Shown here piece after piece: positions 2,327 through 51,832 of a DNA stretch of 64,000 nucleotides (the first letter of the stretch is position 1; each line of letters opens with the position of its first letter). The stretch is taken from the IMG/VR virus record IMGVR_UViG_3300015306_000001; one strand, 5' to 3'. The DNA is from an uncultured virus (IMG/VR IMGVR_UViG_3300015306_000001). Taxonomy: Duplodnaviria; Heunggongvirae; Uroviricota; Caudoviricetes. The notes beneath the pieces were generated by a model. The model had not been told where the DNA came from, searched no databases, and worked only from the letters and a program-made list of their open reading frames with translations. Position numbers and translations under genes: made by a program.

Positions 2327-3877
2327 TTATCCATAAATGTCAAGGATCGTCGTGCCGTTTGCAAAATCCTCTTCCATGCCAATCACAAGGAATTTCTTGC
2401 CAGCGTTAAGACCGAAACGATTCAATCGAAGCGAAACGATATCACCAAGATTGATATTATCAGCGTATTCCGTCTTGAGAGGGACGCGGTATCGATCGCG
2501 CTTGACCTTGTAAAGGTTCAATCGCCGCGTTGCCTCAGCTTGAGCATCTGCGGCGTTAACAAGAAGGGACTGAAACGTTAATTCCTGAGCCATCAAGAAA
2601 GCTGTTGCAACGGTGTCGTCTTTCACGACAACGGTTCGCCATTCTTCGCCGGCAAACGCTTTAGCTGCTTCCGTCGCAGCCGTGTTGCTGATTTGCGTTC
2701 CGGTTTGAACTGTGTAGTTATAACCGTATTCGAGCGTTAGCTTTTTTGCCGGAAGGCCGCGCCCTTCGTCGTTGGTAACAACACGCTCGATACCAGCGCC
2801 ACGATCAAGAATGTATGAACTATCATACTCAACCAGCGCGTTTCCGGTTGGTGCATCGATTCTGAAGAAACGAAGAACGCCTAATCGATCTGGAACGCAC
2901 GTCGCGCCGATACCGTCAAGCAGTTGCGAAATGATTTCAAGGCGCTCTGCTTCACCCGCACCAATCCAAATGCCAATATCAGCCGGATTTAGTGCATGGA
3001 GAGCGTTGAGATCGGCTACCGAATAAGCGGTTGTCGGCAAACCCATGAATTCAAGAAGACGTTGGACGTTGCGGGCCGCTGAGCGTTGACCACTTGCGCC
3101 TTCAGTTGCATCAACCGTAATCTGACCAGCCGGCTTTGCTCCAATACGAAACAAACCAAGCGCGGTTGCTGTTGCGTATTGTCCACCCGTCATCGTTGCA
3201 GTTCGTAAGGCTTGTATTGTATCATAATTTTGTGTAAAAGTCAAGGGCACACCGTTATCACGGACAACTATTCCGCTATTAAACGTGCGACTTGTAACTT
3301 GGTAGATAAGATCAAAACGGTTCGCAAGAACAGGGGAAAAATTGAAAGCTGAACCAAAAAGAAGAGGTTTGGGCTTATCTTTAAGGTCGTCTACGTTTCC
3401 TTCGGCTGTATTCTGTCCGCCAGCCGTTGTTGTTCCTAGATATAGCGTTGGCTGCAAAGGCTTCTTGAAATCAAAAAGCCGATCACGAATTCTGATCGTT
3501 ACCGTTGTCCACGAAAGTTCAACTTGTTCCATCGTTCCGGCAAACAAAAGGGTTCGAGTAGACCAAGCGGAATCAACAGCTTCAAGCCCATAGATCGCAA
3601 GTGTGCGACCATCAACCGCACAACGGGCAAGATAATCAAGAGAACCTTCAGCGTTCGCAAGTTCGATAAAACCAAACGTAACGTCTGGCTCGCCCGAAGT
3701 TGTTCCGTTGGAAAAAGTGGTTCTTTCGTATTTACCCGGCTGCTTGACACGCTCATCAAATGCCGTATTAGCAGGCGTGTCGGTTGGAGAGGTAACATAG
3801 CCATGTGTGCCGAAGCGCTGTTTTTCAACAGCGCCGGTCACAAGATTGTAAGCATCAAACTCAACAAGATATATCAT
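2327..3877 (-). CDS. Minor tail / baseplate-hub protein
   Basis: 516 aa directly downstream of the tape measure (ATGA overlap); KPKPLLFG motif and C-terminal LGDIVSL..RFGL..GKKFLVIG typical of tail hub proteins. Confidence 0.7.
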   Translation of the reverse strand: MIYLVEFDAYNLVTGAVEKQRFGTHGYVTSPTDTPANTAFDERVKQPGKYERTTFSNGTTSGEPDVTFGFIELANAEGSLDYLARCAVDGRTLAIYGLEAVDSAWSTRTLLFAGTMEQVELSWTTVTIRIRDRLFDFKKPLQPTLYLGTTTAGGQNTAEGNVDDLKDKPKPLLFGSAFNFSPVLANRFDLIYQVTSRTFNSGIVVRDNGVPLTFTQNYDTIQALRTATMTGGQYATATALGLFRIGAKPAGQITVDATEGASGQRSAARNVQRLLEFMGLPTTAYSVADLNALHALNPADIGIWIGAGEAERLEIISQLLDGIGATCVPDRLGVLRFFRIDAPTGNALVEYDSSYILDRGAGIERVVTNDEGRGLPAKKLTLEYGYNYTVQTGTQISNTAATEAAKAFAGEEWRTVVVKDDTVATAFLMAQELTFQSLLVNAADAQAEATRRLNLYKVKRDRYRVPLKTEYADNINLGDIVSLRLNRFGLNAGKKFLVIGMEEDFANGTTILDIYG

Positions 3878-18185: not shown

Positions 18186-18214
18186 ATTATACACGATTTA
18201 TTTTCGTTTGTCAA
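18186..18214 (-). promoter_or_regulatory. Consensus sigma70 promoter
   Basis: TTGACA-17-TATAAT, then AGAGG RBS and ATG at 18166. Confidence 0.8.
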
Positions 18215-24463: not shown

Positions 24464-24819
24464 TCTTGCGGATCCCGCGTAACAGGTTGAATAACAGGGA
24501 TCGTCATTTGCACATACAAATAAAGATCAGGATTCGTATCTGTGCGAATAAAATCCAAAACCACCGAACCGGCGCGAGCCTTTCCAGTGGTTTCGGGCAT
24601 GATTTCGATTTGAATCGTATCATCCGATACGCGGGTAATGCCGCCGTTTTCCGTGGTAAGCTCAGCAAGGATTTCAGGCGATGCAAGATCGGAACGAATC
24701 TGGGCACGGAGACCGCAGCCAGCGGGAAAGATTACACTATCCGAACCAGTTACCGTGATCTTGAGGGGCGGGTAGTAAAGCCCGCGAATAATCGCAGGAC
24801 CAGGAACCAGTTGGGACAT
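24460..24819 (-). CDS. Hypothetical structural protein
   Basis: Likely start MSQLVPGP; LRAQIR..LAELTTENGGI adaptor-like pattern. Confidence 0.6.
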   Translation of the reverse strand: MSQLVPGPAIIRGLYYPPLKITVTGSDSVIFPAGCGLRAQIRSDLASPEILAELTTENGGITRVSDDTIQIEIMPETTGKARAGSVVLDFIRTDTNPDLYLYVQMTIPVIQPVTRDPQE

Positions 24820-24833
24820 AGTGAAGCCTTCGA

Positions 24834-25247
24834 TTAGAGGCTGAAGATACCGTTGGCATCCCAAGTGATCTTCGCAGAAGAACCGTTGAGCGTCAGAGGA
24901 AGGCCGGTTGCCGTGTCGATATAAGCAACGAGACGCGAAGAAGTATCGTCTGAGCCTTCTACGTAAACAACAATAGCTTCAACGGCGGTGCCGGTTCCCG
25001 TGCCAGCGGTGATCGCTGGGAAGTCGGTATCTGCGGCGTCGAAAGTGCCGTTTGTAACCGTCTTGGAAGTCAAAGCCTGCGGCGTGCCGTAACGAGCGCC
25101 CGAAGGAACAGACGACAAGAATTCATGCGTGTCGGACTGTGTATAAGCGCCGGTATCAACAAGAACCGCCTTAACGGTTGCGGTGGAAAGATTCAGGCCA
25201 GGAGAAAGAAGGGCCTGTTTGAACTTGGGATAAAGCTTGTTTGCCAT
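24834..25247 (-). CDS. Conserved phage structural protein
   Basis: MANKLYPKFKQALL...TFDAAD...LVAYIDTATGLPLTLNG..ITWD..GIFSL; biased codons. Confidence 0.7.
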   Translation of the reverse strand: MANKLYPKFKQALLSPGLNLSTATVKAVLVDTGAYTQSDTHEFLSSVPSGARYGTPQALTSKTVTNGTFDAADTDFPAITAGTGTGTAVEAIVVYVEGSDDTSSRLVAYIDTATGLPLTLNGSSAKITWDANGIFSL

Positions 25248-25262
25248 GTAGGGAGCCTTTGG

Positions 25263-26594
25263 TTAAATTTCGATTGCGGGTTGGTCGGGGGCTTCTGGAA
25301 CGCCCATCATGCCACGAACGAAGTTGATTGCTTCGTCGTCCGGGGACAATGCAGCGCGGGCGAGATTGGCAAGAGTATCGGCAATTTCTTCAGCCGAACG
25401 CTTGGCAACATCTTCAGTTGAGAAATAAGGCTTGTATTCGTCGGGGAATCCGTTAAGCTCCCAAAGCGGGTCGATAAAGTCCTTGTCGAACTGCGCAACC
25501 ATGTCCTTAAGAGAAGCATTCACAGATAGGTAAAGATTGCCAGACTTATCTTTCGAAAGAGCCTGAGAAGAAGCCGTCTCGCCAAGGAGAAGCAATTCGC
25601 AACCAAGGATGCGAGCAAGTTCGGTGTTGATACGGGTAACGGCTGCGGCCATATCGTTGAGGCCAGTTGTGCCGCCCTGAAGAAGCGACAAATCCCATTG
25701 GCGCTGGCCAGTTACGGCGTTTCCGTTATCGCTTTGTGATGTGTAGGTCTTTGAATCCAGAACGACGCCAGTGGATTCGCCCTTGACTTGCATCGAAACG
25801 AATTTTTCGATGTTCGAGATGTAAAGACGAGCCTGCGCTTGGCGTTCTGGATCATCACCAGCCCATTCCGCAAGTTCTGAGTAAGGAGCGTGGCCAACGG
25901 GAACGCCGCGAAGATCGCGTTCATATCCACGCTGTTCTAGAACCTGATAAGCACGAAGGCGTTCAGCGGGCTCAGCACAATGGCGAAGAAGACCCAAACC
26001 GTCTGGCTGATCGGAAAGCATGTCGTCAAGAAGATAGATGGTCTTGGCGCGCGGCAAATAGGTTTCCGCTTGCGTGTTCGGGTCGCGCTGAACGAAGCCT
26101 AGAACGGTTCCGTTGTCGTCAATGTCCCATTGAACGATGGAGCCAGGGGCGCGGGCTTCAATATTCTGGTAATCGATCAAACCATCAGTGCGGCGACGTG
26201 CGGTCCATTCACTGATCGAACAACCGGAGAACTTGAAACCGGCCGCGCGGCGAATAATGCGATCCCAGGAAGAATCCATGGAATGCATGGCTTCATTGAC
26301 GAATTCGGCATAGCGCTCTGCCTCCGGGGTATCGTCAACCGGGTTTGCTTTCCATGTGCTATTCGTCAAGACGTTGGTATAAAAGCGGATCGAAGCGGCG
26401 ATAATGGAACAATTCGAGACGATATCGTTATAGGTCTTGAACTTTTCCTGCCCCTGAAGCTTTCGATTCTGTTCCGCTGTGGCAAGAAAACCACCATAGG
26501 AAACGACGTTGGAAACGCCTTGCTCACGGAAGGACTTGACGGGTTCGCGCTTGATGACGAAGCCGTACCTATCGACAATTTGCGTTGTGGCCAT
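25263..26594 (-). CDS. Portal protein (DUF935-like)
   Basis: 443 aa downstream of terL; PDGLGLLR..YERDLRGVP and SQALSKDK motifs. Confidence 0.9.
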   Translation of the reverse strand: MATTQIVDRYGFVIKREPVKSFREQGVSNVVSYGGFLATAEQNRKLQGQEKFKTYNDIVSNCSIIAASIRFYTNVLTNSTWKANPVDDTPEAERYAEFVNEAMHSMDSSWDRIIRRAAGFKFSGCSISEWTARRRTDGLIDYQNIEARAPGSIVQWDIDDNGTVLGFVQRDPNTQAETYLPRAKTIYLLDDMLSDQPDGLGLLRHCAEPAERLRAYQVLEQRGYERDLRGVPVGHAPYSELAEWAGDDPERQAQARLYISNIEKFVSMQVKGESTGVVLDSKTYTSQSDNGNAVTGQRQWDLSLLQGGTTGLNDMAAAVTRINTELARILGCELLLLGETASSQALSKDKSGNLYLSVNASLKDMVAQFDKDFIDPLWELNGFPDEYKPYFSTEDVAKRSAEEIADTLANLARAALSPDDEAINFVRGMMGVPEAPDQPAIEI

Positions 26595-30050: not shown

Positions 30051-31391
30051 TTGACACGCGGTTCGGGTGGCGGTAGATTCGTAATCACAGACAACGGAGA
30101 ACGGCAATGCGCCTCAAGACTCATGACGAATTGCTTTCAATCTATCGCCGCTTCTCACGGCGTCAGTTGCTTGATGTTCAGGCAGTCGTGACAAAGCATC
30201 GTGATGCGCCTTATCCAAACGTCAAAGCCTGGGTTGAGCGCACGGACGCCGTGCTTAAGATAATTTGGGCTGAGCGCCTTGCGACTATGATGCCAGAGGC
30301 TTGACCGCCCACCCCAAACCCGCTACACATGGATTGTTGACAGAGGAGAAGAGAGATGCGCTTTAGTATCAGTTACCAAGAATATTTCTTCACGATTTTC
30401 TTAGCTTGGGCTTTTGGATGGACGTTTGGCTATATTATTTTCGCTTGACACCCAACCAATCCTCAGCTACACGTAACAAATAACCAAAGGAAACCGAAAA
30501 ATGATGAAGAAAAACGAACTTAATTTTGCTGGCGATGATAATCGAGTACCCCTGAATATGTATCTAAATGATATGAATCAAATGGTTATTACCCAAGGGC
30601 AAGACATCGTAGTTATCTCACACGAACGCTTCGAAGCTATTCGAGATTTCCTGAACGAAGTAATTAAGCAGAGCGAGCGCGCGCAATGATCACCCTCCGC
30701 TTTACCCAGCCCGGCCACAAGTTCCAGGGCATTTACTCTCTGCCCGCCCACATGCTAGACGAAGCTCGCGCGTTCCTTGTGGCGCGTGGGTATGTTGTGG
30801 AGGAGGGGCGATGAGTGGTTCTGATAAAGGATTTTTACTTATAGGTTTCATTTGGGGGATTGCTGTCTGCGCAATCGCACTAAGTTTGATGATTGGCCCT
30901 GTTAATCAAAAAGCTCTTGACACTTGCGCCAAAACACATAACGTTTATCAGTGTGAAATGGTGGCGGTGCCGAAGATTGGAGAGAAGTGATGAGTGAAAC
31001 AACACCGGGGCCGTGGTTCGTAAGTCATCCAACCAACGAGCCCGACGAATCTAAAGGGTTTATCGTATCGACAACGGAACCTGATTCTTGGGTTGCTTTT
31101 TGCAGGTATGATGGACGGGAAGAGGCGAACGCACTATTGATTGCTCGCGCACCTTCTATGGCCGCTGAAATCGAATCCCTGACTGCTGAGAACGAACGCA
31201 ACCGTCAAGGCTTTGAGTTTCATGCCTCGCTTGCGGATAAGCGATATTGGGAGATCGAATCCCTGACTGCGGAGCGGGATCGGCTGCGCGAGGAAAACGA
31301 GAAGCTTGAAGAATTGCGAAAGGCTTGGCAGTTTGAGGCTAACCGACTAAAAACGCTTTATAACCTCGAAATGTTGAAAGGGGCTAATTAG
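30051..31391 (+). other. Block of small plus-strand genes (e.g. 30107-30304, 30501-30689, 30987-31391) with TTGAC promoters at 30051, 30301 and 30445
   Basis: Repeated promoter-RBS-short ORF units; ends at the hairpin near 31380. Confidence 0.65.
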
Positions 31392-31519: not shown

Positions 31520-32595
31520 GAGAAAGTGGTTGACAGGGCCTGGGCGACGGGTTAAGTTCTAATCATCGGAAGCGCCAAGGAGGCCACCATGACCTATACC
31601 GCAAACAAGCTCAACCTTGATGGTTCGCTCTCTCACAAGGAGCTTCTGAACAATATTGATGAGGTCAATCAGTGGCTTGTTGACTTCTATGGCAAGTACG
31701 CTTCGATCCAGATCACTCAAGATCAGACTGGCAAGATTCGTCGCTATACCGATAACGGTCAGGCTTGGGAGCTTCTTCGTTGATCGGCTTTGAAGAGCTT
31801 CGCGTTCCGATGCAACATCAAGGGCGAATGGCACCTTTGTTTGTTGTCGAAAGGAAAACAACATTTGGTTGGGAAATCTGTCGAAGCTTTCTAACTCTAG
31901 AAAAAGCAGAAAGTTACGCTTCTGAATGCTATTTGTTTTCGCCGCGTAATCGCGGAAAAATGCGTGTATCCCAAGAAATTTTATATCTTTAATGAGAGAA
32001 AGTGGTTGACAGGGATTTGGGGTAGGGCTATAACTTAATCATCGAAACGCCGACAACCGGAGAAACCCAATGACCAAGCTGCTTTACACCACGAAGGAAG
32101 ACAAGGCCCTTGTTGCTCTCATGCTCCTGAACGAAGGCGTCAAGACCCGTACCAAGATGCTGCCGCGCGGCTTCCGCGTCGTATTTGATGGTTCTTGGGA
32201 GACGGTTGCTCGCGTCCTGAACGAGAATGGCTTTCGCACCACAAGCGGGGACTTCGGTCGCGCTTCCTGCGAGTCTGGCGAAGTGTTCGTGACTTGGAAG
32301 GCCGCATAATGAACCCGATATCCCACAAGACAAGGACCGGGCGAGGCAATATTATCCCAGGTTATCAGAACGTTCGAAACAACGGCTTTATGGTGTTCAC
32401 AAAGAAGCATGAGAAAGGGCATTTGACTTGGCGCGCCTGCCATGCAAATTGTCTTTTGATGGCTTCATTTCATCGGGCAATGCCTGAGCATCATGCGATC
32501 TATATGGATAAGGCTAGACAGCTACGAAAAAGAGGGACTTGGCTTTAGATTTTGGTTGACAGGGTTTCGGCCGTGTGCGAATATCAATCATCGGA
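31520..32595 (+). repeat. Three copies of a promoter module (GAGAAAG)TGGTTGACAGGG-N-AATCATCG at 31520, 31996 and 32553
   Basis: 19 nt identical in copies 1 and 2, 12 nt in copy 3; AATCATCG lies 30-31 nt after each TTGACA. Confidence 0.85.
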
Positions 32596-33262
32596 AGACG
32601 GCAAACAAAGGCAACTCAAATGTACGAACTCTGCGCTCTCCTCTCTTCTAACTCGCCCAAGGCTAAGAAGATCCGCAAGCCTGCCGCCAAGGCCATCAAG
32701 GTTGGTTCTTCGGTTACGATTCAGGGACGCTCGGCCACCATCACGGGCCGCGATCATAAGTATGCTAACGCTTGGTTCGCTTCGTTCGATGGCATTGCCT
32801 CGCCCTACAGCTTCTCCCGCGACATGATCAAGGTTCTCTAATGCGTGTTTATTATGTGTCAGCGATTAACGGGAAGCGGGTTAGCCTGATGGTCGGCCCG
32901 TTTTCGCAACAGCAAGAAGCTATCGATCTTGTGAACGAAGCTAGGCGAGTTGCTTCTGAACTCGATTCATGGTCGGATTTCTGGCATTGGGGAACGCTTT
33001 CGATTGATGAATCTGGTGCGCCAGAAGGAACAATGAATTCCTATTTTGCTTCAAATTTCTAGTTGACAAGCCCCAAACCACGGGCTATGTTGTGGGTGTT
33101 GAGAACGGAGAGATGAGATGAGTAGGGAATTTGACGGAAAGGTTGTCGAATCGCTTGAAAAAGGCGAACGATATTTTATTATTTACTTCACAGATGGGAG
33201 CCGAATAGAAGTTGAGGCAAGAGGTTCCGAAGAATTCTGGATTGAGGTGACTGAAAACAATT
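31589..33262 (+). other. Small early-type genes in cassettes (31589-31783, ~31790-31992, 32070-32309, 32309-32548, ~32620-32841, ~32841-33062, ~33113-33262)
   Basis: Short ORFs, two per promoter module; starts partly estimated. Confidence 0.6.
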
Positions 33263-33283
33263 AAAGGCCCTTCGGGGCCTTTA
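33263..33283. terminator. Bidirectional terminator
   Basis: AAAGGCCC-TTCG-GGGCCTTT between the early genes and terS. Confidence 0.75.
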
Positions 33284-33709
33284 CTTTTGCCCCAACTTCG
33301 AAAGCAGTTCTTCCAGAACCGCGTCGGATAGGCCGGTGATGTCAAGCGATTGCTTGGACTCGATAGGGCCTCCGTCTTTGCCCGTGACCTCTGTGTGGGT
33401 CTTCTCTAGCCAATCGGCAGGGGCGGCGTTCTTGAGGGCGAAGATCATGGCCGTTACACGCGGACCCATGGTCGAAGTAGTAAGCTGGTCCTCAAGGAAG
33501 GCTTGACGCTTGGCCCTTGCCAGGGCTACAAGCTCGCCAAAATCCTCATGCTTCTTTTCCCACTCATAGACGCGCTCGCGATGGATATCGCAAAGCGCAG
33601 CAGCCGCAGTCAGCGAGAGACCACGGCCCATATGCTCTAGAATTTTCTCGCCAAGGTCGGGTGTGTATTTAGTTGGCCGACCACCTTTATTGACTTGGCC
33701 ATCAGCCAT
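33281..33709 (-). CDS. terS: Terminase small subunit
   Basis: GGRPTKYTP HTH start, MIFALKN..WLEK and EVTGKDGGPIE motifs. Confidence 0.9.
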   Translation of the reverse strand: MADGQVNKGGRPTKYTPDLGEKILEHMGRGLSLTAAAALCDIHRERVYEWEKKHEDFGELVALARAKRQAFLEDQLTTSTMGPRVTAMIFALKNAAPADWLEKTHTEVTGKDGGPIESKQSLDITGLSDAVLEELLSKLGQK

Positions 33710-33760
33710 TGCGGATTATTTCCTTTTAGTGTTCGGAAACTTACATACATTGATGAATGT

Positions 33761-33871
33761 ATCAGGACGGAACCCGCTCTATCCGAGAGTCAGCGGGCTC
33801 TATATGCAAGCGGGTCTGATCGGAGTCTCCCGCGAAGACGGACACCGTTACCGGGCCATAGACATCCTGAT
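33761..33871 (-). ncRNA. Candidate structured ncRNA B (~111 nt) downstream of tRNA-Trp
   Basis: Closing stem AUCAGGAUG/CGUCCUGAU; internal hairpins CCG-GUAA-CGG, GUCUUC-GCGG-GAGAC and GAGCCCGCU/AGCGGGUUC. Confidence 0.5.
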
Positions 33872-33873
33872 TC

Positions 33874-33951
33874 TGGCGGCGCGCACCTGGATTCGAACCA
33901 GGGATCACGGTTTTGGAGACCGATGCTTTAGGCCAGCTAAGCTATACGCCC
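33874..33951 (-). tRNA. tRNA-Trp (CCA)
   Basis: Cloverleaf with loop CU-CCA-AA, T-loop UUCGAAU and encoded CCA; one bulged G in the acceptor stem. Confidence 0.85.
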
Positions 33952-33956
33952 ATATT

Positions 33957-34033
33957 TGGTTGCGGAGATCGGATTCGCACCGATGACCTCTTGGTTATGA
34001 GCCAAGCGCACTACTAGACTGTGCTACTCCGCG
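33957..34033 (-). tRNA. tRNA-Met (CAU), initiator-like (C1:A72)
   Basis: CGCGGAG...CU-CAU-AA...CUCCGCA-ACCA; atypical D and T loops. Confidence 0.85.
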
Positions 34034-34037
34034 AAAC

Positions 34038-34113
34038 TGGTCTAGGTGGCAAGACTCGAACTTGCGACAACTCGCGTCCAAGGCGAGAACTCTACCGACT
34101 GAGCTACACCCAG
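34038..34113 (-). tRNA. tRNA-Pro (UGG)
   Basis: CUGGGUG/CACCUAG acceptor stem, A73, loop CU-UGG-AC, encoded CCA. Confidence 0.9.
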
Positions 34114-34242
34114 AAACGAAACGGGCACCGGGGCCGAAGCCCCGTCTGATATTTATACAGCTTGGCCCTTATATCAAGCTGTCTTGGAATCCTTGCGGAC
34201 CCGGAATTGGCGCTTAAGCAGCGGCCACGCTATCGTAATTAA

Positions 34243-34351
34243 AGTGGATGATCCCATGGGGTCCGATCGAAGAACCTAGCGCATTCCGCTCTATCCAGAT
34301 GTTCCGTGGGGATTGCCCATGCTCGGCTGGTCCTGGTTGTGGTCATCCACT
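34243..34351 (-). ncRNA. Candidate structured ncRNA A (~109 nt) upstream of the tRNAs
   Basis: Perfect 9-bp closing stem AGUGGAUGA/UCAUCCACU; shares GGAUAGAGCGG with RNA B. Confidence 0.45.
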
Positions 34352-34385
34352 AGACGCCATTTTATAGGCGACCTATGAAAATGAG

Positions 34386-34530
34386 GACTAGACGAACCGG
34401 AGGAGAGGACGGCCCGTCTAGTCGCGCTCGCCTAACAACTCAATCAAGAGGAGGCGAGAGACCTCTAAGCCTTTCGCTCAAGGCAGAATGCGCAAGGAGA
34501 GCCAACGCACGAGCCGAGCAGCTTTTGTGA
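34386..34530 (-). ncRNA. Candidate sRNA with anti-Shine-Dalgarno (CUCCU) hairpins, cuckoo/alpha-r14-like
   Basis: Three hairpins carrying UCUCCUU, CCUCCUCUU and UCCUCUCCUC directly after a promoter. Confidence 0.5.
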
Positions 34531-34540
34531 GGATAAGGGT

Positions 34541-34569
34541 AGTATATACGATTTTTTGGGGATTGTCAA
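34541..34569 (-). promoter_or_regulatory. Sigma70 promoter of the ncRNA/tRNA operon
   Basis: TTGACA-17-TATACT. Confidence 0.8.
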
Positions 34570-34754
34570 GCGTTTTTATTTGCTTCAACAACTCTTCGGG
34601 CATACGAAAGCCAACATTTCTGGTAAGCGGCATATTCAGTAGAGCCATAACGGTAAATAGAGGTTTCGTATGGACCACCGGCCATGCAAGAATCCCAACC
34701 GCGATTAAAGGCGCGAATACGATTCATTTTAGCAACAATCTCTTGATCTGTCAT
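34566..34754 (-). CDS. Small protein, possibly Rmf/CrpP-like
   Basis: Start MTDQEIV after AAGGA; RAFNRGW...Y......AYQKCW pattern. Confidence 0.5.
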   Translation of the reverse strand: MTDQEIVAKMNRIRAFNRGWDSCMAGGPYETSIYRYGSTEYAAYQKCWLSYARRVVEANKNA

Positions 34755-34844
34755 TTTACAGTTCCTTTTGTGTTTAGATATGCTCTCATTCGCACGACGT
34801 TGGCCGCTGACGCGGTTTCTAGCGTTTTTGGTAGACAACTAGCC

Positions 34845-35255
34845 CTAATCAAAGAAACGCCCTGTAAGGCGCTCTAATTCGTTTTTTAGTTCATCGGCGC
34901 GAAAGTCACTGAAATAATCGAAGCCATCCCGCCAATTTGCGACTTCGTGGCCATGCACAAACGCTGTGTGCCACGCTTTGTCCCGCCAAATACCGAAAGC
35001 GAATAGCGAAAAACCACCAGAACGCCAGAGCGTCGAGTGCCAAGCGATTTGCGCAGGGCGTATACCGGGTTTCTTGACCCATAACATGCCTTCTTCGGGC
35101 TCCGCGATCTTTAGTTCGACAGGAACAATAACATCCCCCACTAGAACCAAAAGGTCGGCCGCCCCCGTATCAGAACCCCTTCCTGGCTCTACGGCCGAAA
35201 TCCATCCTTTGTAAGAGGCACGAAAGGCCCGTTTATAATCAGTTTCCGATGGCAC
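34845..35255 (-). CDS. VRR-NUC / PD-(D/E)xK nuclease (resolvase-like)
   Basis: GTG start after AGGAGA; GAADLL..VELK..IRPAQIAWH motif. Confidence 0.75.
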   Translation of the reverse strand: MPSETDYKRAFRASYKGWISAVEPGRGSDTGAADLLVLVGDVIVPVELKIAEPEEGMLWVKKPGIRPAQIAWHSTLWRSGGFSLFAFGIWRDKAWHTAFVHGHEVANWRDGFDYFSDFRADELKNELERLTGRFFD

Positions 35256-46212: not shown

Positions 46213-46407
46213 TCAATCCGTTTCCGCTGCTTCCTTTGTCACGATTTGTTTCGCCTTTTGCCGCGTCCTCTTATTGAACCGGCGCTTTGTCTTCGCCACT
46301 ACACCAGCACGCGAAAGACGCACAGAAATACGCCTCCAATGTGTGAACACATCTAGTTCATCACCAGAAATGATAGGGTTGATTCGGTCTCGTCCTTTCT
46401 CAGCCAA
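46213..46407 (-). CDS. Small basic hypothetical protein
   Basis: ...DVFTHWRR..KRRFNKRTRQ, overlapping the thyX stop. Confidence 0.5.
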   Translation of the reverse strand: MAEKGRDRINPIISGDELDVFTHWRRISVRLSRAGVVAKTKRRFNKRTRQKAKQIVTKEAAETD

Positions 46408-47047
46408 ATAGATCAGGCTCCTCTTTCGAAAGGGCGGCGCGCGCCGCCTTGGCAACGAGAATATGCTCCAACTGCGTTCCATTTCCCTCGCGAACATCTA
46501 GATAATGAATCCATGTTCGCGCTGATGCTGCCATATAAAGCCGGCTCATCGTCAAGCCTTCCGGCAGAAACACACGCGCGCATTCCTTCGCTGCGCCTCG
46601 CCCAATCCACTTATCGTATCGCCCACGCGCCTCCGCAATTGCTTGTTCGCAATCTTCTCGAAACTCTGCCTTTTCCACTTCCGAGAAATCGTCAATCGAG
46701 TTCTGACGATTCTTTTGATCTTGTCGCCTTAGCTCACGAACCGTAAACTTCTGAGGCTCTGCGTATCGCTGCGAGAACTCTTGGAAACGGGCAGAAGCAT
46801 GTCGCAAGATTTGCCGAGAAATATCCCGTGGCGCTTCTAATTCCAAATCGAAACTGATCATCTCTAGTGGAGACCAGTGTTTGTTTCGAATGAGATACGC
46901 GACAAGCTCTTTCGATCGAAGGTTCTCAACTTGATTTTTAGGCGATGAAACACGCGCCATGTAGGCAACGAATTCTGTCGCCGTCTTGACGTTAGGAATA
47001 CCAACCGGAACAGTTTTACCTACAACTTCAGCAGATAGAATCATCAA
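46400..47047 (-). CDS. thyX: FAD-dependent thymidylate synthase
   Basis: ARVS, HWSPLEM, RQILRH..FQEFSQRY and ECARVFLP motifs. Confidence 0.95.
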   Translation of the reverse strand: MMILSAEVVGKTVPVGIPNVKTATEFVAYMARVSSPKNQVENLRSKELVAYLIRNKHWSPLEMISFDLELEAPRDISRQILRHASARFQEFSQRYAEPQKFTVRELRRQDQKNRQNSIDDFSEVEKAEFREDCEQAIAEARGRYDKWIGRGAAKECARVFLPEGLTMSRLYMAASARTWIHYLDVREGNGTQLEHILVAKAARAALSKEEPDLFG

Positions 47048-51296: not shown

Positions 51297-51832
51297 ATTG
51301 AACCCTCCTTAACCATATATATAAGGCATCGTTCCGTTGCCTCCACATCCGACTTCGCGCCGTGGGCTCCATCGAAGCCCTCATTATAGAAGGTTTCATG
51401 TAGCAATGTCAAGTTCGGACGGAAGCCAAATCGCCACTCATTCTCTGAAACTGTATCGATCAGCCGCTTTTCCGAATAGTCCCAATCAATGCCCGCGCGC
51501 CTAAAATCAAAACTGAGCATCATCAAATCGAAGAGGAGATTATGGCCAGCGTAAGCGTCACAATCCTGCATAAAGGCATGAATCTTCTCAGCTTCGCTGA
51601 TAAAAGTTGGCTTATCCAGAAGAAATTCTTCCGTCAAGCCTGTAACCTTCATAGCGCCAGCATCCATTGGAACGCCAATTTTGAACCAGGAATGATAATC
51701 GCCAAGCGCTTCGCCGGTTTCGGTATCGATACGTTTGGCGTATAACTCTACGGTCCAAGGTTGCTTATTAAGCGCTCGCTGAGTTGAGTGCCAAAGCGCA
51801 CTTGTTTCTGTATCAAAGACAATCGTCTTCAC
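51293..51832 (-). CDS. DnaQ-like DEDDh 3'-5' exonuclease
   Basis: VFDTET, GHNLLFD, IDT and AHGAKSDV motifs. Confidence 0.9.
   Translation of the reverse strand: MKTIVFDTETSALWHSTQRALNKQPWTVELYAKRIDTETGEALGDYHSWFKIGVPMDAGAMKVTGLTEEFLLDKPTFISEAEKIHAFMQDCDAYAGHNLLFDLMMLSFDFRRAGIDWDYSEKRLIDTVSENEWRFGFRPNLTLLHETFYNEGFDGAHGAKSDVEATERCLIYMVKEGSI

Follow-up and report, generated by a model that had tools for sequence, protein, structure and literature searches.

The tRNA cluster of phage T4 carries two stable RNAs, rnaC and rnaD (species 1 and 2), whose function is not known. Both are small and structured; they share a promoter and a transcript with the phage tRNAs, and processing of that transcript sets them free. 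Since these T4 examples, the small RNAs of tRNA clusters have been without a known function, and few phage-encoded regulatory RNAs are understood. Here we analyze an element of about 150 nucleotides (nt) on the minus strand of a 64,000-nt stretch of DNA from an uncultured virus of the Caudoviricetes (IMG/VR record IMGVR_UViG_3300015306_000001); this whole stretch is called the window throughout. Comparative analysis indicates that the element is a real, conserved structured RNA that matches no described RNA family and stands at the head of a stable-RNA operon of the phage. It represents a new, uncatalogued and narrow RNA family within a general class already known, that of small RNAs accompanying phage tRNA clusters. 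We liken it to the T4 RNAs by description only: rnaC and rnaD lie at the far end of their cluster, whereas the element is always the first module, and the host and the phage lineage differ.

Adjacent hairpins with a pyrimidine-rich loop resembling the anti-Shine-Dalgarno (anti-SD) sequence are also a feature of the cuckoo/alpha-r14 RNAs of alphaproteobacteria, which include CcsR (RSs0680). According to PMC4615179, these RNAs consist of two to four adjacent hairpins of 24 to 50 nt each, with CCUCCUCCC in every loop, and three-hairpin forms are known; pyrimidine motifs in hairpin loops are described there as a signature of small RNAs (sRNAs) that pair with ribosome-binding sites (RBSs). The same text cites the UCCC loops of staphylococcal RNAIII and the Rsa sRNAs, which are thought to seed RBS pairing; with these the analogy is one of design only, the organisms and sequences being unrelated. 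As portrayed in PMC4615179, cuckoo RNAs are chromosomal and multicopy, whereas the element is phage borne and single copy, and only one of its loops is reliably pyrimidine.

Leader RNAs that act on transcription offer a different comparison. The put RNA of phage HK022, as presented in PMC9378689, is about 70 nt long, forms two stem-loops just downstream of the promoter, needs no protein, and is found in both early operons. The element is likewise a phage-encoded structured RNA close behind a promoter, but it is about twice that length, has three domains, and occurs once per genome at the head of an RNA operon. The leaders of rRNA operons, the lambda nut leaders (boxB/boxA/boxC), and LoaP-type leaders also open a long or untranslated unit, and specialized NusG paralogs (loaP, taA, and upxY) are often encoded beside their target operons (PMC7819879). 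A NusG-family gene adjoins the element in one clade of relatives. The element has no boxA-like word, and neither the window nor the complete genome G004 carries the NusG-like gene.

A sequence-only reading had presented the element as a phage sRNA with three anti-SD hairpins at the head of a tRNA operon, akin to cuckoo/alpha-r14 or AbcR RNAs. The sRNA idea looks plausible. As a tentative preference, somewhat short of probable, we propose that processing would release the element as a stable RNA and that a pyrimidine loop would let it act in trans on purine-rich, Shine-Dalgarno (SD)-like sites. The proposed kinship had to be given up. For cuckoo/alpha-r14, CCUCCUCCC is absent from positions 34375-34540 even with one mismatch allowed, the first domain (70 nt) falls outside the 24- to 50-nt range, and there is no Rfam match; AbcR was rejected for lack of an Rfam match. 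Scanning positions 33500-35200 against Rfam 15 with cmscan (E ≤ 10) returned only three tRNAs and a sub-threshold YrlA match lying over the tRNAs, and the corresponding scan of seven relative loci (E ≤ 1) returned only tRNAs within the array. In a blastn search of 33800-34900 against 50,697 phage records, only the tRNAs matched, and the gap upstream of terS in Rhizobium phage RHph_Y5A contains nothing similar. When Rhizobium freirei (G001) and 151 genomes of its order were searched with a covariance model of the element (R1), no full match came up; the sole match was a 31-nt partial one (E 0.0067). Judged by this sample, the element is not found as a borrowed host sRNA.

Fold and conservation of the element

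The minimum-energy fold of 34535-34375 (minus strand, 161 nt) has a free energy of -60.2 kcal/mol (z -3.06), and 1 of 200 shuffled sequences folded as well. All three stems written out in the sequence-only reading are present in this fold, which divides the element into three adjacent hairpin domains (34532-34386). Its description of the first two hairpins needed revision. What had been called hairpin 1 (34510-34488; stem GUGCGU/GCGCAU, loop UGGCUCUCCUU) is the tip of a longer domain, a single 70-nt interrupted hairpin, and the supposed loop of hairpin 2 (stem CUCGCCU/AGGCGAG) contains an extra inner stem of 3 base pairs (bp). Hairpin 3 has a 14-bp stem and a 10-nt, all-pyrimidine loop at 34409-34400. 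It is followed by a 3′ tail that opens with CCUC or CCCU and reads CCUCUAAUU, CCUCAGUUU, or CCCUUAUUU in relatives.

Relatives were collected in several ways. A search with the small terminase subunit yielded five IMG/VR contigs, and a hairpin-2 pattern, which occurs in at least 119 metagenome stretches and at least 120 genome stretches, led to a sixth. An nhmmer profile search over 250 loci matched only the same phage group (E ≤ 2.7e-36), together with a new 1.6-kb metagenome contig, L126; all other matches had E values of at least 0.0029 and spanned little beyond the pattern. The eight distinct copies are those of the window, L001, L002, L003, L004, L005, L010, and L126, the relatives all being uncultured phage or metagenome contigs. 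Two copies sit in 66-kb genomes that are complete and bear terminal repeats; each of these genomes has one copy, as does the window. Close relatives of the element were present in contigs from all four public sequencing runs examined (X2, X5, X13, and X22, from four studies). Promoter and architecture are common to all seven distinct relatives, and seven sequences folded singly each gave an identical three-domain nested architecture.

RNAalifold applied to a MAFFT alignment (A2) missed hairpin 3, whose 3′ arm was out of register. The consensus was rebuilt from the pairs common to the single-sequence folds and counted on alignment A3 (48 pairs, 383 cells), so that it derives from the same sequences on which it was scored. 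On this consensus, 89.0% of cells were paired, compared with 80.1% (standard deviation, 1.0) after shuffling; 19 pairs had changed on both sides, compared with 8.8; and the covariation score was 0.327, compared with 0.173. None of these three values was reached in 500 shuffles. When the 3′ partners were slid by one to three columns as a control, pairing fell to 29-53%. Covariation in related phages, which had been suggested as a check on the sRNA idea, was found.

The strongest signal comes from hairpin 3 (helix 8), in which both sides have changed at 8 of the 11 outer pairs; 98.9% of its cells are paired, several of them as G-U. Its stem diverges freely while the composition of its loop stays: in all eight copies the loop is 9 to 10 nt long, consists of pyrimidines only, and includes CUCUCC (UCCUCUCCUC in the window; UCCUCUCUC, CUUCUCUCC, UCCCUCUCC, and CCCUCUCUCC as the other variants). 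The outer stem of hairpin 2 (helix 6; GCCUC(C)/GAGGC register in relatives) is 98.4% paired and invariant at six of its eight pairs, and covariation thus neither supports nor contradicts it; the inner stem covaries in the single folds (CUC/GAG, CCC/GGG, and CGC/GCG). Across the 5′ domain (helices 1 to 5), 66.7 to 100% of cells are paired. Both pairs of helix 4 and four of the nine pairs of helix 5 changed on both sides, whereas helix 3 (GCUC/GAGY) is invariant in all copies and its pairing is therefore without covariation support. G-U pairs are frequent (for example, UG in six of the eight copies at pair 136-148), which fits a minus-strand RNA and not a DNA hairpin. The genomes have diverged, aligned parts of the window averaging 69% and 74% DNA identity with genomes G003 and G004 and aligned protein genes being about 65-83% identical in DNA among these phages, so the structure has been maintained through substantial sequence change.

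These data also bear on whether the element is an RNA at all. The GGAG runs might serve a plus-strand gene as RBSs or codons; alternatively, the hairpins might function as DNA, as a pac site or origin beside the terminase genes. The window does contain a 51-amino-acid (aa) plus-strand open reading frame (ORF) at 34375-34530, the only sizable one over the element, and the element sits upstream of terS. However, this ORF is present in none of the seven relatives, no ORF on either strand is shared among the eight copies, and the one-base difference in loop length among copies would shift the frame. The claim that there is no convincing ORF thus held, and the GGAG runs do not belong to a conserved plus-strand gene. 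The G-U pairs of the stems would be A-C mismatches on the opposite strand, and the plus strand of the same stretch folds less well (-51.2 kcal/mol; z -1.50), being equaled by 18 of 200 shuffled sequences. In L010, moreover, a terminator and a reverse gene part the array from a terS of another type. A coding or DNA-level role is largely refuted by these observations, and we consider it highly improbable.

Promoter and untranslated RNA array

The sigma-70-type promoter named in the sequence-only reading was found on the minus strand in front of the element, with TTGACA (34569-34564) and TATACT (34546-34541) separated by a 17-nt spacer and matching the consensus at 11 of 12 positions. TTGACA-N16-18-TATAMT occurs three times in the window, each time on the minus strand, compared with 0.04 occurrences expected. 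All seven relatives keep the promoter as TTGACAAAC..AAAT(C/A)G..TATA(C/A)T. Transcription of the element would start near 34534. Upstream of the promoter in the window is a 62-aa ORF without a family match, whose TGA stop falls within the -35 hexamer. The other perfect TTGACA-N-TATAAT promoters on the gene strand are at 18186-18214 (-) and 51383-51412 (-); together, the three consensus promoters (18186, 34541, and 51383) partition the genome into thirds of about 17 kb each, and the one at 18186 has the spacer word AAATCGT in common with the promoter of the element.

The element opens an untranslated array of variable RNA modules and zero to three tRNAs that precedes the packaging genes in most genomes. 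It is the sole module present in all eight copies, is always the first, and heads about 800 nt of untranslated RNA. In the window the array includes tRNA-Pro, tRNA-Met, and tRNA-Trp, with no terminator between the element and the tRNAs, in keeping with the earlier description of the element as leading a tRNA operon. Hairpin 3 is not predicted as a terminator, and no convincing promoter precedes the tRNAs themselves; thus, the element is most likely made within a precursor. The intervening segment, 34114-34385, has a fold z of -1.89 and no Rfam match. At its place the blocks differ from genome to genome (L001-L005, L010, and L126), forming a mosaic of short structured blocks. The module boundary lies right behind hairpin 3. 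In contigs of runs X5 and X13, 34116-34385 (268 nt are given behind hairpin 3) is swapped for 74 other letters, with the break exactly at the end of the hairpin-3 tail, and in L001 a tRNA begins 8 nt past the hairpin-3 stem. In L010/G003, the last member of the array is a tRNA, behind which come a hairpin terminator, a reverse-strand gene, and a terS of a different type; the array can therefore be an RNA-only operon. A motif like GGGCCUCUAAUU or GGGCCUGAAUUG recurs at the ends of blocks or modules and may be a recombination or processing site.

An element made together with tRNAs could be a passive structured 5′ leader of their precursor, which would stabilize the transcript, insulate the promoter, or guide processing and would have no function after cleavage. 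The cotranscription with no terminator in between, the immediately adjacent tRNA in L001, and the fact that no target was found fit such a leader. We nevertheless consider it unlikely. Compensatory changes keep all three domains although the protein genes have diverged to the extent given above, the loop composition is kept in all eight copies, and L002, L003, and L004 keep the element with no tRNA detected in their arrays.

A cis-acting transcription leader is the main rival to a trans-acting RNA. Here the nascent RNA, alone or with Nus-type factors, would make RNA polymerase resist Rho and terminators, so that the array and the packaging genes are transcribed to the end; HK022 put and the boxA/boxB leaders of rRNA are the analogues, and a NusG-like neighbor would join in one clade. 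The element lies right behind the promoter in all eight copies while later modules vary, and no translating ribosomes protect the roughly 800 nt of untranslated RNA. Transcription from either of the window's other consensus promoters would reach ORFs in about 20-90 nt, and neither promoter has such an element. The position matches that of put, which according to PMC9378689 is protein free and just downstream of its promoter. On the other side, the element is twice as long as put's ~70 nt, as given there, and has three domains where put has two stem-loops. There is no strong terminator within the leader of the window to overcome, and the conserved pyrimidine-only loop is left unexplained. Matches to boxA (YGCUCUUUA, at most one mismatch) number 36, none of them inside 34375-34540; in the consensus fold, helix 3 places the element's invariant GCUC opposite GAG(Y).

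The protein neighbor that would support a cis-acting leader is a 151-aa KOW protein encoded just upstream of the promoter in five of the eight loci (L004, 2836-3291 [+]; L002, L003, L010, and L126), with its stop codon within the -35 hexamer. It matches Pfam KOW (E 3.2e-6; 27.2 bits, cutoff 22.3) and, weakly, PDB entries of Spt5, NusG, and RfaH over residues 32-143 (E 0.007-0.03), and its location recalls the NusG paralogs that adjoin their target operons (PMC7819879). Against this, no homologue is present in the 64-kb window or in complete genome G004 (best E 1.4 and 2.4; positive control G003, 3.8e-103), and the upstream spot is a variable hot-spot. Taking both sides together, we hold a cis-acting leader to be a serious possibility, if on balance unlikely. 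Besides the NusG-like gene, and the 62-aa ORF of the window, the cargo found at the hot-spot can be an HNH-like ORF or small reverse-strand genes; examples are G004 24534-25082 (+) and 25196-25474 (-), L001 at about 230-540, and L003 at about 3300-3410. A search of viral contigs gave no relative of a 155-aa neighbor.

Pyrimidine loops and Shine-Dalgarno-like targets

In addition to the hairpin-3 loop, loop 1 is GGYUYUCCU-like in most copies. Against the RBSs of the phage itself, the hairpin-3 loop pairs with a mean energy of -6.6 kcal/mol (background, -4.9), and an anti-SD control pairs with the same RBSs at -5.8 kcal/mol (background, -3.9), so that the loops pair about as well as the control. 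The best pairing site in the phage's own sequence is GAGGAGAGG, at the RBS of the ORF at 46400-47047. Many early genes carry AAGGAGA or AGGAGAG, and GGAG or GAGG upstream of the start is commoner in the genes before the element (window 34570-55300) than in late genes (1300-33709, minus strand). For ORFs of at least 60 aa under a first-ATG rule, 15 of 33 early and 6 of 33 late genes have such a site in the window (p 0.033), and 17 of 39 and 5 of 33 do so in G004 (p 0.011). Under an SD-guided rule, the early and late counts are 22/33 versus 7/33 in the window, 21/33 versus 8/26 in G003, and 23/39 versus 9/33 in G004.

The trans-acting RNA that we tentatively favor would arise and act as follows. 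From the consensus sigma-70 promoter, transcription would begin with the ~150-nt element, continue through the further structured modules and tRNAs of an untranslated stable-RNA operon, and, in most genomes, run on into the packaging genes. The element would then be cut from the precursor, by RNase P where a tRNA directly follows and elsewhere, we infer, by an endonuclease cleaving the A/U-rich tail past hairpin 3. The released RNA would persist, its 3′ end capped by hairpin 3. The exposed hairpin-3 loop, always with CUCUCC, would act in trans, with help from loop 1 and the CCUC tail in most genomes. Loop and tail would pair with GGAG/GAGG SD-like sequences and lower the translation of strong-SD host mRNAs and of the phage's own early genes. 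We favor this account because the structure is conserved, the minus strand folds better, and the loop is constant while its stem diverges; because the module boundary lies right behind hairpin 3, as the swap in X5 and X13 and the tRNA 8 nt away in L001 indicate; because the array can be an RNA-only operon; and because the loops match the phage's RBSs as the anti-SD control does and early genes are richer in GGAG/GAGG.

Several observations weigh against this account. The sequence-only reading counted three anti-SD hairpins; the number of reliably exposed pyrimidine loops is one, that of hairpin 3. Loop 1 is GGUUCUACUUG in L005, where the anti-SD look is gone, and the CCUCC or GCCUC(C) run of hairpin 2 is base paired in the alignment register of the relatives. 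The expectation that the loops be conserved in relatives was thus borne out for hairpin 3 and failed for loop 1. A search of the window, G003, and G004 gave no extended or covarying complement to loop 1 or loop 3. The SD contrast is fragile: under the first-ATG rule it is 7/33 versus 4/26 in G003 (p 0.74), among ORFs of at least 100 aa it weakens (window, p 0.066; G003, p 1), and it is exploratory throughout, with crude gene calls and three genomes that are not independent. Hairpin 3 has no U run right after its stem (CCUCAUUUU), so a discrete sRNA would need processing, and it is not among the terminator-like sites of a terminator scan that limits loops to at most 8 nt. The element is proximal to the transcription start site in all eight copies while later modules shuffle, and a freely excised sRNA would need no fixed first place. 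The structure test covers eight sequences from two or three clades, and by one further measure, the number of further pair types, it is no better than chance (30 observed and 29.5 shuffled; reached by 251 of 500 shuffles). Finally, among 24 sequencing runs (17 studies) that hold the stretch, none is on record as RNA.

A sharper version of the same idea is that the RNA mimics the anti-SD end of 16S rRNA, with a hairpin, a single-stranded CCUC, and the CUCUCC loop, and so masks strong GGAG-type RBSs. We think this rather improbable. Were it true, the mimic would be made in bulk, host mRNAs and phage early genes would be shut down, and late genes, mostly without such sites, would still be translated; the element would then be an RNA-only early-to-late switch of translation.

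The conserved feature of the hairpin-3 loop is its composition rather than its exact sequence, all five variants being pyrimidine. This would suit a decoy or sponge in which the loop and the tail titrate a C/U-binding host protein such as ribosomal protein S1, Rho, a cold-shock protein, or Hfq. The strong promoter and the failure to find a specific mRNA target point the same way, while a single 10-nt loop is a small platform for Rho. We rate a decoy as quite improbable. The preferred trans-acting RNA would make the element possibly a regulator that works through its C/U loop. Either that outcome or a cis-acting leader would add a new RNA family to phage biology, and an anti-SD action, if true, would represent a novel means by which phages redirect translation. 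The element makes a clean case for study: it is short and has a consensus promoter, a covariation-supported fold, one candidate business end, and variants with and without the NusG-like gene.

Neighboring features of the locus

The window covers all or a large part of a phage genome, with nearly all genes on the minus strand. Upstream of the element are genes for DNA polymerase, ribonucleotide reductase, and a primase-helicase; downstream come those for the small terminase (33281-33709), the large terminase, and the portal. Among cultured phages, the closest large terminases (terL) are those of Rhizobium phages, at about 50% identity. Table 1 lists the features around the element.

Table 1. 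Positions in the window of the element, its parts, and the features that follow it
Feature	Position	Strand	Basis
Promoter TTGACA-17-TATACT	34541..34569	-	motif, kept in relatives
5′ domain, interrupted hairpin	34462..34532	-	fold and relatives
Hairpin 2	34427..34458	-	fold and relatives
Hairpin 3	34386..34423	-	fold and covariation
3′ tail CCUCAUUUUCAU, module boundary	34375..34385	-	comparison with relatives
Variable noncoding module(s)	34114..34385	-	different blocks in relatives
tRNA-Pro(UGG), tRNA-Met(CAU), tRNA-Trp(CCA)	33878..34113	-	tRNA detection
Second structured RNA, four-way junction	33760..33872	-	alignment, compensatory changes
terS, small terminase subunit, first protein gene past the RNA array	33281..33709	-	PHROG 309, E 7e-23

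Directly upstream of terS is a second structured RNA, a cloverleaf-like four-way junction with three inner covarying hairpins, closed by the 9-bp stem AUCAGGA(U/C)G/CGUCCUGAU. In alignment A4, 11 of its 32 pairs show compensatory changes. It is 95.6% identical to the copy in G004, above the neighboring genes, and neither the window nor the relatives gave an Rfam match for it. A pattern for this RNA occurred in five known and five new contigs; in the five new ones model R1 found no element, and two of them, L269 and L272, appear to be chance matches within coding sequence. Between terS and terL, among small ORFs on both strands, are islands that are 90-100% identical to G003/G004 (33055-33120, 30917-30992, 32548-32596, 31992-32056, and 30301-30358), the remainder there being poorly conserved.

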